From: a virus
Taxonomy: Duplodnaviria; Heunggongvirae; Uroviricota; Caudoviricetes
Reading direction: 5' to 3' (one strand)
DNA length: 10,625 nt
IMG/VR virus record: IMGVR_UViG_2737471862_000005
Span: 1-10,625 of that record
Part shown: piece by piece, positions 91 through 10,625 of the stretch
Layout: every line of letters starts with the position of its first letter
Position numbering within the stretch: the first letter of the stretch is position 1
Made by a program: the position numbers and the translations under genes
The notes under the pieces: generated by a model
What the model was told of the DNA's origin: nothing
Databases searched by the model: none
What the model saw: the letters and a program-made list of their open reading frames with translations, nothing else

Positions 91-105
91 TTAGTATAAA
101 AAAGC
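91..105 (-). repeat. attR core (15-bp common core, reverse complement of GCTTTTTTATACTAA), flanked on the left by the attB B' arm
   Basis: ttagtataaaaaagc at 91-105; reverse complement of 75-90 reads CTTGAGCGAAACGGG, matching the B' arm of attB as I recall it. Confidence 0.9.
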
Positions 106-292: not shown

Positions 293-627
293 TCGTAAAA
301 TCGGTAACGTCTGGAAATCATTCAATATTCGCACTATCGGAAGTTCACCAGCCAACCGCAGCACGTTATTGCATACAACGTACTGCGGCATAAAACCAAT
401 GATTATTCCTTCCCGCACATGACATACCGCGACTTTATTTATCCCCAGCAGGAAATTTTTCATACAACTTCGCCCCACCAACATCACAGGTAATTGTTCC
501 GCCTGTGTATTCTCGCGCCAACATCTACCACAATTTGTTTTCATAGGATTGTAGTCACTCTTCTGGTTGTTTCACATAATAACTTGTATACTTCAGATAG
601 TATTCATAACCTCAAACTATTTAATGT

Positions 628-1495: not shown

Positions 1496-2065
1496 TTATT
1501 GTGGTTGCACAGGCCAAACTGGCTCAAGAATATCAACACGGTTCAGCAATACCCGATACTTCTTCCAGGCTGTCAGCAACGATATTTCTTCCTCCGTTGC
1601 AATCTCCAGATCTACCGCATCCTGAAGTGGCGAAATATGCTCACTGGCTACCTGCATCAGGCTGTTTTTTGTTTCTTCCGCCTCCCGGATCCGGAACAGT
1701 TTTTCTGCTTCTGCATCTTTCACCCAGGCTGTGCCGTTCCACTTCTGAAACTCCCCTTCCGGCGATAACCAGGTAACATTTTCCGGTAACGGACCGAGTT
1801 CAGAAATAAATAAAGCATCACCGGAAGTTACGTCATATACAGTTTTACCTCGGTGGTCTTCAACAATATTCCAAGATTTATTCTCACTGTTAAAAACAGC
1901 CACAAATCCAGCCTCCACATCTGGTGGTGCTATATCTGTAGTATTAGCTGGTAGACCTGTATACGGTGGGATATATGCGTCACTTTCCCCAATAAATTCA
2001 TTGGTTCCATCAAGTAAATTAAATACGCGGATAGTTTGTGCTTCTGCACTCATTCTGAAAGTCAT
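1496..2065 (-). CDS. tfa: Tail fiber assembly protein Tfa
   Basis: 189-aa translation ([27 protein letters not shown]...[28 protein letters not shown]...) is near-identical over most of its length to lambda Tfa as I recall it; start ATG overlaps the stf stop as TAATG. Confidence 0.9.
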
Positions 2066-3570
2066 TATGCAAGCCTCACAATATAGTTAAATGCGATGTT
2101 TTTGACGGTGTTTTCGGTATTACCAGTAGCATTTACGGTAATGGAATGCCCGTGTGAGCCAATGGCAACAGTGTGTGAATGTGCACCAATACCAACAGTA
2201 TGGTTATGTGCTCCAATGTCGACTGTATGTGCATGATTGCCTGATGAACTAGTAGTCGTAGCACCTTTATCACTTCGCGGAACACCATAATTTGCACCGC
2301 CTGATTGCACGCTCACAGCAAAACCGACGGTATGTGTATGATTGCCTGAAGTATTGGTTGATTTTGTGCCGTGGTTAAACGTACTGACTGTCTTCGTGCC
2401 GTAATCAAATGAACTGGTCGTTTTCGTCCCTAAATCCGTATTTGACGCACTGGCGCTGTGAGTATGCGATTTAATCCCGTCCTGTTCCTGTGATAATACA
2501 GCACGCCCACTGGCGGGTTTGCCCTTGATTGTCCAGCCGCGCATATCCGGAATAACACCAGAAGGATAGGCTATAGCCAGTTTCGGATATGCAGATTTGT
2601 CAAAAGTCTGCCCCTGCATCAGGGCATAGCCAGACGGAACGGTATCTGATGGCCACGGGATTGGTGCGCCGACTGGATAAAACTCTGCAGGAGGATGAGC
2701 CGAGGTGTAAAGCTGCGCCCACGGCGACCAGTTTGCGTCGGTCGTATCCCGTCGTGAACGAATAAATGCCGGAGCATGAGCACCGCTTGTACCACTCCAG
2801 CCGATGAGTAACTCACCTTCGCCAACGGCTGTCATCCCTTTCAGGTGAATGATATTTCCATACGCTGTTGGATATCCGTTGTTATACACCTCGTATAACT
2901 CAAGACCTGCTGCCCCCTGCGTATTGTCTGTCAGCGCGGCTACCCGACCTTTTGAAGCCAGATTAACTGATGATACTGCTGTTCCACCTGACGGTAGCGC
3001 CCCGATCTCTGATGCCGTTGGCTTATTTCTGGAGTTATAGTCCCTTCGCCAACCAGGTGAATAATCTGTTCCGTGATTAATATAGGTAAACTGGGCGTTG
3101 GTTGTTCCGCCACCGCTGGATGTGGTCGGAGTGGTAATGCGGATCGTCATCGCTGACTTTATCCCCATTACTTCAATGACAGCTCCGGCGAGATGAATAT
3201 TACCGCAGCCAGTATCAGTAATGATTTTATTATTGCCATAAGACCAGGAACCCTTGCACATCCAGTATGGATGGTTAAATGCTCCCTGAGAATCCAGCCA
3301 CTCGATAAACTGTGCAGTCGTCCAGTTTCCTGTTGTTGTGCTTACTGACCCACCGAAGGCACGGCAGGCACCAATATTTTTCGTAAAGGTATCTTTGCCA
3401 GGGATATCCGCACCGTTCTGATCTTTCTGCAGACGTTTCTCAGCATTGTCATTGGCTGCTTTTACTGCCTTTGGTGTCGCGGCAAGCGTTTCAGACGTGC
3501 TGTTGGTCGCGCTGCTTAGCTGGATTATCCCTTTCTGTGCTGTCGTTGCATCCTGTGCGGTGTATTTCCC
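2065..3570 (-). pseudogene. stf: Side tail fiber gene stf, 5'-truncated: C-terminal ~500 codons retained with no in-frame start at the truncation point
   Basis: Frame is open from the junction to the TAA at 2065-2067; contains the tail-fiber motif [38 protein letters not shown], repeated HxH motifs and the C-terminus ...[13 protein letters not shown]; first in-frame ATG is internal at 3261. Confidence 0.85.
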
Positions 3571-3768
3571 GTTAACGATGAAACCATGCAGGAGATTAAC
3601 ACTCTGCTGATCGCCCTGGATAAAACATGGGATGACGACTTATTGCCGCTCTGTTCCCAGATATTTCGCCGCGACATTCGCGCATCGTCAGAACTGACAC
3701 AGGCCGAAGCAGTGAAAGCTCTTGGATTCCTGAAACAGAAAGCCACTGAGCAGAAGGTGGCAGCATGA
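3568..3768 (+). pseudogene. bet: bet (Red-beta) 3' fragment, last ~66 codons only
   Basis: Translation ...[66 protein letters not shown] matches the lambda Bet C-terminus; upstream sequence is tail-fiber antisense, not bet. Confidence 0.85.
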
Positions 3769-4445
3769 CACCGGACATTATCCTGCAGCGTACCGGGATC
3801 GACGTGAGAGCTGTCGAACAGGGGGATGATGCATGGCACAAATTACGGCTCGGCGTCATCACCGCTTCAGAAGTTCACAACGTGATAGCAAAGCCCCGCT
3901 CCGGAAAAAAGTGGCCTGACATGAAAATGTCCTACTTCCACACCCTGCTGGCTGAGGTTTGCACCGGTGTGGCTCCGGAAGTTAATGCTAAGGCGCTGGC
4001 ATGGGGAAAACAGTACGAGAACGACGCCAGAACTCTGTTTGAATTCACTTCCGGCGTGAATGTTACTGAATCCCCGATCATCTATCGCGACGAAAGTATG
4101 CGTACCGCCTGCTCTCCCGATGGTTTATGCAGTGACGGCAATGGCCTTGAGCTGAAATGCCCGTTTACCTCCCGGGATTTCATGAAGTTCCGGCTCGGTG
4201 GTTTCGAGGCCATAAAGTCGGCTTACATGGCCCAGGTGCAGTACAGCATGTGGGTGACGCGAAAAGATGCCTGGTACTTTGCCAACTATGACCCGCGTAT
4301 GAAGCGTGAAGGCCTGCATTATGTCGTGGTTGAGCGGGATGAAAAGTACATGGCGAGTTTTGACGAGATGGTGCCGGAGTTCATCGAAAAAATGGACGAG
4401 GCACTGGCTGAAATTGGTTTTGTATTTGGGGAGCAATGGCGATGA
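3765..4445 (+). CDS. exo: Lambda exonuclease (Red-alpha)
   Basis: 226-aa translation matches lambda Exo almost residue for residue; ATG overlaps the bet stop (ATGA); SD AAGGTGG upstream. Confidence 0.95.
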
Positions 4446-5400: not shown

Positions 5401-5648
5401 GCGTAATTCACTCTCAGGCACTGCGTGAAGCGGCAGAGCAGGCAATGCCTGACAACTGGGGATTTGACGCGGACCTTTTCCATGAGCTGGTAACACCATC
5501 GATTGTGCTGACACTGCTGGATGAACGGGAAAGAAACCAGCAATACATCAAACGCCGCGACCAGGAGAACGAGGATATTGCGCTAACGGTGGGGAAACTG
5601 CGTGTTGAGCTGGAGACAGCAAAAATCAAAACTCAACGAGCAGCGTGA
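5397..5648 (+). CDS. ea22: Ea22-like protein, N-terminal 83 codons, ending at an in-frame TGA (see findings)
   Basis: GTG start overlapping the orf73 stop (GTGA); called from its position after orf73 in the expected exo-xis gene order; the same frame stays open for 53 more codons after the TGA. Confidence 0.55.
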   Translation: MSVIHSQALREAAEQAMPDNWGFDADLFHELVTPSIVLTLLDERERNQQYIKRRDQENEDIALTVGKLRVELETAKIKTQRAA

Positions 5649-5946
5649 GTAGAAGGTGTTATCTCGGATGGAAGTAAGCGTATTGCTGAACTGGAGGCCT
5701 GGGTTGAATACACAAGAGCTGCATACGTAAGAGCAAAAGACAAGGGAGATTTGATCAGAGTTATTACCCGCCAACCAACGGGATTTTACGCTTACGTACC
5801 ATGTAATTAGGAATCCTTGAAGTGGCAGCCTAACTGCGGATACACTGAAATGGCGATTTGGTAACATGTTTCGCACAAGGCTGTTACTACACTTAGAGAT
5901 AATCAGCCATGATTAAACGCTTTGTAAAAAGTAAAAGGAAATTACA

Positions 5947-6711: not shown

Positions 6712-6812
6712 GCGTTGCTGGTTGTCGATTCCTCAATCACTCCTGTTGATGGCTCTCTTCTTGTATGTGCCATTGAAGGGGAATATCGCGTAAAAAGATA
6801 CCGGAAGTATCC
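6712..6812 (+). pseudogene. Fragment of an S24 peptidase (LexA/UmuD/CI-type) C-terminal domain
   Basis: Frame opens right after a TAA and reads LLVVDSSITPVDGSLLVCAIEGEYRVKRYRKYP, resembling UmuD [34 protein letters not shown] and LexA VVVARIDDEVTVKRLKK; no N-terminal part and no continuation in any frame. Confidence 0.5.
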
Positions 6813-6854
6813 GCGCCGCCATGATTGTCTTTCTCCTGATGCAGGAAAAGCAGA

Positions 6855-7914: not shown

Positions 7915-7955
7915 TTGCGTGTAATTGCGGAGACTTTGCGATGTACTTGACACTT
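7915..7955 (+). promoter_or_regulatory. pI (int promoter) region with cII-type TTGC-N6-TTGC recognition motif
   Basis: TTGC at 7915-7918 and 7925-7928 separated by 6 nt, just upstream of and overlapping the xis 5' end, as in lambda pI. Confidence 0.55.
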
Positions 7956-8159
7956 CAGGAGTGGAACGCACGCCAGCGACGCCCAAGAAGCCTTGAAACA
8001 GTTCGTCGATGGGTACGCGAGTGCAGGATATTCCCTCCTCCGGTTAAGGATGGAAGAGAGTATCTGTTCCACGAATCAGCGGTAAAGGTTGACTTAAATC
8101 GACCAGTAACAGGTAGCCTTTTGAAGAGGATCAGAAATGGGAAGAAGGCGAAGTCATGA
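7941..8159 (+). CDS. xis: Excisionase Xis
   Basis: 72-aa translation MYLTLQEWNARQRRPRSLETVRRWVRECRIFPPPVKDGREYLFHESAVKVDLNRPVTGSLLKRIRNGKKAKS matches lambda Xis; 3' end overlaps int by 23 nt. Confidence 0.95.
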   Translation: MYLTLQEWNARQRRPRSLETVRRWVRECRIFPPPVKDGREYLFHESAVKVDLNRPVTGSLLKRIRNGKKAKS

Positions 8160-9207
8160 GCGCCGGGATTTACCCCCTAACCTTTATATAAGAAACAATG
8201 GATATTACTGCTACAGGGACCCAAGGACGGGTAAAGAGTTTGGATTAGGCAGAGACAGGCGAATCGCAATCACTGAAGCTATACAGGCCAACATTGAGTT
8301 ATTTTCAGGACACAAACACAAGCCTCTGACAGCGAGAATCAACAGTGATAATTCCGTTACGTTACATTCATGGCTTGATCGCTACGAAAAAATCCTGGCC
8401 AGCAGAGGAATCAAGCAGAAGACACTCATAAATTACATGAGCAAAATTAAAGCAATAAGGAGGGGTCTGCCTGATGCTCCACTTGAAGACATCACCACAA
8501 AAGAAATTGCGGCAATGCTCAATGGATACATAGACGAGGGCAAGGCGGCGTCAGCCAAGTTAATCAGATCAACACTGAGCGATGCATTCCGAGAGGCAAT
8601 AGCTGAAGGCCATATAACAACAAACCCTGTCGCTGCCACTCGCGCAGCAAAATCAGAGGTAAGGAGATCAAGACTTACGGCTGACGAATACCTGAAAATT
8701 TATCAAGCAGCAGAATCATCACCATGTTGGCTCAGACTTGCAATGGAACTGGCTGTTGTTACCGGGCAACGAGTTGGTGATTTATGCGAAATGAAGTGGT
8801 CTGATATCGTAGATGGATATCTTTATGTCGAGCAAAGCAAAACAGGCGTAAAAATTGCCATCCCAACAACATTGCATGTTGATGCTCTCGGGATATCAAT
8901 GAAGGAAACACTTGATAAATGCAAAGAGATTCTTGGCGGAGAAACCATAATTGCATCTACTCGTCGTGAACCGCTTTCATCCGGCACAGTATCAAGGTAT
9001 TTTATGCGCGCACGAAAAGCATCAGGTCTTTCCTTCGAAGGGGATCCGCCTACCTTTCACGAGTTGCGCAGTTTGTCTGCAAGACTCTATGAGAAGCAGA
9101 TAAGCGATAAGTTTGCTCAACATCTTCTCGGGCATAAGTCGGACACCATGGCATCACAGTATCGTGATGACAGAGGCAGGGAGTGGGACAAAATTGAAAT
9201 CAAATAA
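8137..9207 (+). CDS. int: Tyrosine integrase Int
   Basis: 356-aa translation MGRRRSHERRDLPPNLYIRNNGYYCYRDPRTGKEFGLGRDRRIAITEAIQ... matches lambda Int at full length; stop codon abuts the P' arm. Confidence 0.97.
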   Translation: MGRRRSHERRDLPPNLYIRNNGYYCYRDPRTGKEFGLGRDRRIAITEAIQANIELFSGHKHKPLTARINSDNSVTLHSWLDRYEKILASRGIKQKTLINYMSKIKAIRRGLPDAPLEDITTKEIAAMLNGYIDEGKAASAKLIRSTLSDAFREAIAEGHITTNPVAATRAAKSEVRRSRLTADEYLKIYQAAESSPCWLRLAMELAVVTGQRVGDLCEMKWSDIVDGYLYVEQSKTGVKIAIPTTLHVDALGISMKETLDKCKEILGGETIIASTRREPLSSGTVSRYFMRARKASGLSFEGDPPTFHELRSLSARLYEKQISDKFAQHLLGHKSDTMASQYRDDRGREWDKIEIK

Positions 9208-9282
9208 TGATTTTATTTTGACTGATAGTGACCTGTTCGTTGCAACAAATTGATAAGCAATGCTTTTTTATAATGCCAACTT
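9208..9282 (-). promoter_or_regulatory. Lambda attP P' arm with arm-type Int sites
   Basis: Reverse complement of 9210-9229 gives AGGTCACTAT and CAGTCAAAAT; reverse complement of the whole segment matches the P' arm as I recall it (TTGGCATTATAAAAAAGCATTGCTTATCAATTTGTTGCAACGAACAGGTCACTATCAGTCAAAATAAAATCATT). Confidence 0.85.
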
Positions 9283-9297
9283 AGTATAAAAAAGCAG
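9283..9297 (-). repeat. attL core (15-bp common core), followed by the attB B arm
   Basis: ttagtataaaaaagc at 9283-9297, identical to 91-105; the next bases caggcttca are the reverse complement of the B arm TGAAGCCTG. Confidence 0.9.
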
Positions 9298-9341: not shown

Positions 9342-10625
9342 GTGAACACATTTTCAGTTTCCCGTCTGGCGCTGGCATTGGCTTTTGGCGTGACGCTGAC
9401 CGCCTGTAGCTCAACCCCGCCCGATCAACGTCCTTCTGATCAAACCGCGCCTGGTACCTCTTCTCGCCCGATTCTGTCGGCAAAAGAAGCGCAGAATTTC
9501 GATGCTCAACACTATTTTGCATCCCTGACACCAGGTGCTGCAGCGTGGAATCCTTCCCCGATTACCCTGCCTGCGCAACCTGACTTTGTTGTCGGCCCGG
9601 CGGGCACTCAAGGTGTAACGCATACCACGATTCAGGCGGCGGTAGATGCGGCAATTATCAAGCGTACCAACAAGCGCCAGTATATTGCCGTGATGCCTGG
9701 TGAGTATCAGGGAACGGTATATGTCCCTGCCGCTCCGGGTGGAATTACTCTGTACGGTACAGGTGAAAAACCGATTGATGTGAAGATTGGGCTTTCCCTT
9801 GATGGTGGCATGAGCCCTGCCGACTGGCGTCACGACGTCAACCCGCGCGGCAAATATATGCCAGGTAAACCAGCGTGGTATATGTACGATAGCTGCCAGA
9901 GCAAACGCAGCGACAGTATCGGTGTTCTCTGCTCTGCGGTCTTCTGGTCACAAAACAATGGCCTGCAACTGCAAAATCTGACCATCGAAAACACGCTGGG
10001 CGATAGCGTAGATGCAGGTAACCATCCGGCGGTGGCACTGCGTACTGATGGTGACCAGGTACAGATTAACAACGTTAACATTCTCGGTCGTCAGAACACC
10101 TTCTTTGTCACCAACAGCGGTGTGCAGAACCGTCTGGAAACGAATCGTCAGCCGCGTACGCTGGTGACCAACAGCTACATTGAAGGGGATGTGGATATCG
10201 TTTCTGGTCGCGGCGCAGTGGTGTTCGATAACACCGAATTCCGCGTGGTGAACTCACGTACTCAGCAAGAAGCGTATGTGTTTGCACCGGCTACGCTGTC
10301 CAACATTTACTACGGTTTCCTCGCCGTAAACAGCCGTTTCAATGCTTTCGGTGATGGTGTGGCGCAACTGGGCCGCTCGCTGGATGTTGATGCCAATACC
10401 AACGGTCAGGTGGTGATCCGTGATAGCGCCATCAACGAAGGTTTTAACACGGCTAAACCGTGGGCCGATGCGGTGATCTCTAATCGTCCGTTTGCGGGTA
10501 ATACCGGCAGCGTAGATGATAACGACGAAATACAGCGCAATCTGAATGACACTAACTACAACCGCATGTGGGAATACAATAACCGCGGCGTGGGTAGTAA
10601 AGTGGTTGCAGAGGCGAAGAAGTAA
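9342..10625 (+). CDS. ybhC: Host outer-membrane lipoprotein YbhC (pectinesterase-family acyl-CoA thioesterase)
   Basis: 427-aa ORF with GTG start, SD GGAG 8 nt upstream, signal peptide with lipobox LTAC; recognised as E. coli YbhC, the gene adjacent to attB. Confidence 0.9.
   Translation: MNTFSVSRLALALAFGVTLTACSSTPPDQRPSDQTAPGTSSRPILSAKEAQNFDAQHYFASLTPGAAAWNPSPITLPAQPDFVVGPAGTQGVTHTTIQAAVDAAIIKRTNKRQYIAVMPGEYQGTVYVPAAPGGITLYGTGEKPIDVKIGLSLDGGMSPADWRHDVNPRGKYMPGKPAWYMYDSCQSKRSDSIGVLCSAVFWSQNNGLQLQNLTIENTLGDSVDAGNHPAVALRTDGDQVQINNVNILGRQNTFFVTNSGVQNRLETNRQPRTLVTNSYIEGDVDIVSGRGAVVFDNTEFRVVNSRTQQEAYVFAPATLSNIYYGFLAVNSRFNAFGDGVAQLGRSLDVDANTNGQVVIRDSAINEGFNTAKPWADAVISNRPFAGNTGSVDDNDEIQRNLNDTNYNRMWEYNNRGVGSKVVAEAKK

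Follow-up and report, generated by a model that had tools for sequence, protein, structure and literature searches.

The junction described here, at which the 3′ half of the tail-fibre gene stf meets the 3′ end of bet, was very probably produced by a spontaneous internal deletion of ∼38 kb in a lambda-like prophage integrated at att-lambda, the two ends having been joined by illegitimate recombination. The window (the whole 10,625-nt stretch of DNA that was analyzed) is 100% identical to positions 1478609–1489233 of the chromosome of E. coli ES5, an isolate from frog-farm sediment in China, and lies in the ybhB–ybhC interval, with ybhB ending just upstream of the window start. Between two 15-bp att cores at this classical lambda attachment site is a 9.2-kb prophage remnant, in which attR is followed by a short b-region, tfa, the 3′ half of stf, a bet stub, exo, a group of accessory genes, xis, int, and attL (Table 1). 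The ybhB and ybhC flanks, the duplicated core, the position of int and xis beside attL and the presence of exo and bet upstream of them in the same orientation (all on the plus strand) are those of a lambdoid prophage at att-lambda. None of the repressor, replication, lysis, terminase, head, and tail genes of a functional prophage was found between the att cores.

Table 1. Features of the window, numbered from its first letter.
Feature	Position	Strand	Basis or remark
lambda att core, attR side, adjoining ybhB (bio side)	91–105	-	exact GCTTTTTTATACTAA; 0.01 chance matches expected
'capsid protein' pseudogene fragment, in b-region beside attR	293–391	-	
ORF, 239 aa	663–1382	+	no Pfam or PADLOC match
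tfa, tail fibre assembly gene	1496–2065	-	Pfam Caudo_TAP, E=1e-37; annotated tail fiber assembly protein
stf 3′ half, pseudogene	2065–3574	-	96–99% identity to full-length prophage stf up to 3571–3574
crossover interval	3571–3574	.	three-way ungapped alignments; GTTA common to bet and the commonest stf allele
bet 3′ end, pseudogene fragment	3571–3768	+	Red-beta residues 197–261 and stop; 99–100% identity to relatives
exo, lambda exonuclease	3765–4445	+	annotation; 226-aa ORF
ea22-like gene, frameshifted	5445–5696	+	RefSeq pseudogene
ORF, 204 aa	5947–6561	+	no family match
'DNA repair protein' fragment, small	6712–6822	+	RefSeq pseudogene
ORF, 112 aa	6855–7193	+	no family match
ORF, 142 aa	7222–7650	+	matches DUF2513
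xis	7941–8159	+	annotated excisionase; 72-aa ORF, intact
int	8137–9207	+	annotated tyrosine recombinase; 356-aa ORF, intact
lambda att core, attL side, adjoining ybhC (gal side)	9281–9295	-	exact core match
ybhC	9342–10625		

The accessory region downstream of exo contains orf60a/orf63/orf61-like genes, a TraR-like gene, several unknown ORFs and the ea22-like pseudogene. The slot between the ea22-like gene and xis, a frequent site of moron or defence genes in lambdoid phages, is occupied in the window by the ORFs of 204, 112, and 142 aa listed in Table 1, none of which has a PADLOC match; Pfam and PADLOC searches returned nothing that would assign a defence or other function to the unannotated ORFs. 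The lesions in the ea22-like gene and in the 'DNA repair protein' fragment are also found in the more complete prophage of strain WP8-S18-CRE-02, and hence predate the large deletion. At the other end of the remnant, the capsid fragment and the neighbouring 239-aa ORF occur as a pair in strains AJ1 and GDSC2227PM as well.

The position of the junction was determined with a megablast query spanning window positions 3100–4000 (901 bp), which was searched against phage records and 5,426 complete E. coli genomes and yielded two sets of hits, one to stf genes over 3100–3574 (97–99% identity) and the other to bet/exo over 3567–4000 (∼99% identity). Homology to stf, on the minus strand, stops at 3570–3574, and homology to lambda bet, on the plus strand, begins at 3571. 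In ungapped three-way alignments with the full-length stf genes of PhiR68_2, RM14723, DH5alpha, 4/1-1, and MEI7BO1-21 and with the bet gene of mEp332, the window matches the stf relatives perfectly up to 3571 and bet perfectly from 3571 on, with no foreign bases between the two homologies. C3570 is specific to stf (bet has G) and A3575 is specific to bet (stf has G), such that the crossover is bracketed between them. The direct fusion of stf to the 3′ end of bet that had been proposed in the initial annotation is thus borne out, the alignments placing the breakpoint at 3571–3574 with no unrelated sequence between the stf-like and bet-like segments. The two homologies had also been said to meet at the hexamer GTTAAC (3571–3576), and the place is right, but the complete hexamer, which corresponds to an HpaI site inside bet (lambda 32217–32222), belongs to bet only and stf supplies GTTA at most; around the crossover the two parents show an imperfect 8/10 match (TCCcGTTAgC in stf and TCCgGTTAaC in bet). 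The Val-Asn pair noted in both opposite-strand frames is likewise present, but is trivial, because the palindromic GTTAAC sits in codon phase on each strand.

At the equivalent position, stf reads GTTAGC in RM14723, DH5alpha, 4/1-1, and MEI7BO1-21, the last of which carries the closest allele (99.2% identity), and GCTAGC in PhiR68_2. Three 86-nt stf probes differing in the hexamer alone were searched against the 5,426 complete E. coli genomes, with a count threshold of at least 99% identity. Exact 86-mers were found for both natural alleles, GTTAGC being the commoner (276 records) and GCTAGC the rarer (68 records). The hypothetical GTTAAC probe returned 7 records, and none of the matches listed for it was exact over the full length, the full-length ones among them being 98.8% identical with one mismatch each. 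Depending on the parental allele, which we infer from the relatives, the bases shared at the breakpoint are therefore either the four of GTTA (3571–3574, with GTTAGC) or the single G3571 (with GCTAGC). When 200,000 random deletion junctions were simulated on the genome of a related phage, 1.7% of them had microhomology of at least 4 bp; the 4-bp case thus departs modestly from randomness, whereas the 1-bp case is no better than chance. The earlier suggestion of a microhomology-mediated deletion on a 6-bp palindrome accordingly holds for the deletion and for the absence of filler, but what the two parents have in common at the breakpoint is 4 bp or 1 bp and not the hexamer.

Fuller relatives integrated at the same site (AJ1 and WP8-S18-CRE-02) have the order ybhB-attR-b-tfa-stf-J...lysis-Q-nin-P-cII-cro-cI-N-...-kil-gam-bet-exo-...-xis-int-attL-ybhC, and given this integrated order a single internal deletion from the middle of stf to late bet would generate exactly the observed junction in the observed orientation. 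The record of phage PhiR68_2 follows the prophage order, and in it 38,242 bp separate the stf and bet hexamers that correspond to the junction. On the virion map no deletion could join these ends of stf and bet in this orientation, and the deletion spans cos; the deletion proposed in the initial annotation was correct, but it can be understood only from the gene order of the integrated prophage and not from the lambda virion map. The deleted segment would have extended from about codon 496 of stf through lom, J, all of the tail and head genes, cos, lysis, Q, and nin, and then through the replication and immunity genes, N, kil, and gam into bet as far as codon 196. It is proposed that the ends were joined by RecA-independent illegitimate recombination at the very short shared sequence (GTTA or G), either through replication slippage (slipped-strand mispairing) or through microhomology-assisted end joining. 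RecA-independent slippage and end joining are well established in E. coli. Such an event would have removed all of the genes able to kill the host upon induction (kil, N-dependent functions and lysis) together with immunity, and would have left a 9.2-kb cryptic prophage that is locked in and expected to be harmless; xis and int are intact, but pL, the normal source of xis expression, is gone.

The stf remnant keeps 501 codons. The missing ∼496 N-terminal codons (1,487 nt relative to the 1,008-codon stf of RM14723) include the N-terminal tail-attachment domain, whereas the Phage_fiber_2 (PF03406) and Collar (PF07484) domains are detected by Pfam in what remains. Homology, with 96–99% nucleotide identity over 2393–3574, and these fibre repeat and collar domains place the remnant among Stf proteins, although it has neither the attachment domain nor an in-frame start codon. 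The minus-strand stf frame lacks any ATG, GTG, or TTG from the stop at 3640–3642 as far as the ATG at 3261, and upstream of that ATG (...CCATCCATACTGG-ATG) no Shine-Dalgarno match was found. Reading of the frame thus agrees with the initial annotation that stf has no start codon before the internal ATG and runs on antisense through bet to the stop at 3640–3642. Its description of the gene as a pseudogene is also upheld, as stf is 5′-truncated and is annotated as 'missing N-terminus', and both stf and bet are incomplete pseudogenes in RefSeq. The reading frame of tfa is intact and its upstream late promoter is lost. The stf/tfa remnant (1531–3574, minus strand) is itself mosaic: 2393–3574 shows ∼96% identity to the stf that is common in E. 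coli prophages, 2203–2392 is unmatched in the common-stf relatives, and identity over 1531–2202 is 84–86%. Its 3′ end (1–2684) is closely matched in two other genomes only.

On the other side of the junction, the bet stub corresponds to lambda sequence from 32222 downward and is 99–100% identical from 3571 on to the bet genes of mEp332, SfI, 434, and WP8-S18-CRE-02. Residues 1–196 of Bet are deleted and the last 65 codons are left, the plus-strand frame ending in KATEQKVAA with a stop at 3766–3768 that overlaps the exo start. Near its C-terminus, the stub carries a single substitution relative to lambda Bet (KATEQKVAA in place of KAAEQKVAA; 3739–3741). The exo gene in the window does not contain the second lambda HpaI site (lambda 31807). 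In Red-beta, the N-terminal DNA-binding and annealing domain comprises residues 1–177 and the ordered C-terminal domain (CTD) starts at Thr-195 (PMC6393309). The annealase domain is thus absent, and residues 197–261, all that remains, correspond nearly exactly to the ordered domain through which Red-beta binds lambda Exo and SSB (PDB 6m9k; PMC6393309); the stub matches the Red-beta CTD chains 6m9k and 8tfu in the PDB. An intact exo lies directly downstream with the native overlapping stop and start, but no start codon marks the domain boundary in the stub. Its first in-frame ATG (3586) is Met-202, for which no recognizable Shine-Dalgarno sequence or promoter was found, and a crude consensus scan of 3000–4200, which low-level read-through could escape, detected no sigma-70-like promoter. 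The exo frame is intact and pL is lost. Both junction fragments are dead, their 5′ ends and their promoters (pR′ for stf/tfa and pL for bet/exo) being gone, and the coincidence of the stub end with the CTD boundary is most likely due to chance. It is highly improbable that the boundary was instead selected so as to leave a minimal Exo-interaction module, with a 60–65-aa Red-beta CTD peptide made from Met-202, translationally coupled to the intact exo and expressed by read-through transcription entering antisense via the stf remnant. If all of this were true, the host would have gained a domesticated exonuclease/SSB-binding pair, and the 3′ half of stf together with tfa would represent a reservoir of receptor-binding domains for recombination with superinfecting lambdoid phages.

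The junction was detected in one of the 5,426 complete E. coli genomes, that of ES5, and an exact 38-mer across it found nothing in metagenome contigs or among GTDB species representatives. This rarity points to a recent, strain-specific event. Occurrence in a single assembly, the record of which is labelled whole genome shotgun, could also reflect an error of the ES5 assembly, either a chimeric join or the omission of a 38-kb segment, but such an artefact is very unlikely: there is no collapse-prone repeat at the junction (1–4 bp shared), the 901-bp query matches one place in ES5 and hence there is no second copy of these stf or bet segments to mis-join, both flanks are collinear with the chromosome, and other complete genomes, assembled independently, have comparable deletion remnants at this locus. 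Less plausible still, to the point of being barely credible, is a laboratory-made lambda derivative in which the segment was excised in vitro with HpaI (GTT^AAC) and the blunt ends were joined, an origin that the initial annotation had left open and that is now rejected. HpaI recognizes the junction hexamer, which is the counterpart of the site at lambda 32217–32222; however, a palindromic restriction site would speak for engineering only if it were present in both parental sequences, and GTTAAC is present in bet whereas the stf alleles examined read GTTAGC or GCTAGC, the synthetic GTTAAC probe having no exact full-length counterpart among its listed matches. Moreover, ES5 was isolated from the environment, its prophage is a mosaic distinct from lambda with arms that are also present in wild strains, sister remnants carry other, natural deletions, and no vector or marker sequences were seen nearby. 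The cos-spanning deletion would have been possible only in the integrated gene order, and lambda vectors are not built by cos-spanning deletions in that order.

An origin in more than one step, either by nested deletions or by deletion between two lambdoid prophages in tandem at att-lambda that contributed stf and bet separately, is improbable but deserves somewhat more weight than the explanations above. The two arms differ in distribution: 111 genomes contain the right arm, at 99.7% identity, whereas the left arm (b-region, tfa, and the stf 3′ end) occurs in only two other genomes. No parent prophage with both arms intact was identified among the genomes examined. The best relative of the right arm is WP8-S18-CRE-02 (99.7%), and those of the left arm are AJ1 and GDSC2227PM, each with its own stf truncation. 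In GDSC2227PM a J fragment is fused to the orf61/TraR region (22058–22961 of the extracted locus) and tfa has an internal stop, in AJ1 stf is cut further 3′ (window-equivalent 2684), J is frameshifted and the head genes are lost (22058–27830 of the extracted locus), and in WP8-S18-CRE-02 an IS1 truncates the tape-measure gene (20240–22349 of the extracted locus) and the prophage's own tail-fibre end has been lost to IS1. These lesions differ, showing that decay events build up independently at the att-lambda locus, and several deletions at one locus would be compatible with a stepwise history. However, lambdoid phages are mosaic, so unequal distributions of the arms do not require a tandem lysogen, nothing in the sequence demands more than one event, and the final joining at 3571–3574 would have occurred by the same mechanism either way; a single deletion is therefore the preferred reading. 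An event of the Gin/Pin invertase type was also considered. A Pin-like recombinase gene adjoins tfa in some relatives, such as PhiR68_2, and TTCCCGTTA bears what we take to be a loose resemblance to a gix half-site. The window contains no invertase gene, a site of this kind is missing on the bet side, and an invertase would yield inversions, not 38-kb deletions; this candidate was rejected without a formal test.

The ES5 remnant matters little beyond its correct annotation, adding one more base-resolved case of lambdoid prophage inactivation and chromosomal lock-in, although it does hold a lesson for genome scans, in that an adjacency of stf and bet that appears odd on the virion map is a plain deletion in prophage order. 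The proposed event resembles other instances of illegitimate recombination at short homologies, whether by slippage, by alternative end joining or in the aberrant excisions from which lambda gal and bio transducing phages arise, in which the join is likewise clean, without filler and with 1–4 bp shared. Unlike in the excision of gal and bio transducing phages, both endpoints in ES5 are inside the prophage and neither is in host DNA. The product can be compared with the established cryptic lambdoid prophages of E. coli, Rac, Qin, DLP12, and e14, which are likewise integrated remnants that have lost immunity, replication, lysis and morphogenesis genes by deletion and have kept an integrase, fragments of recombination genes and a tail-fibre/tfa cassette, with truncated genes annotated as pseudogenes. 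In contrast to these, the ES5 remnant is located at att-lambda itself, is only 9.2 kb in size, has a strain-specific junction (1 of 5,426 genomes) and retains both att cores, int, and xis intact. It represents ordinary prophage decay.
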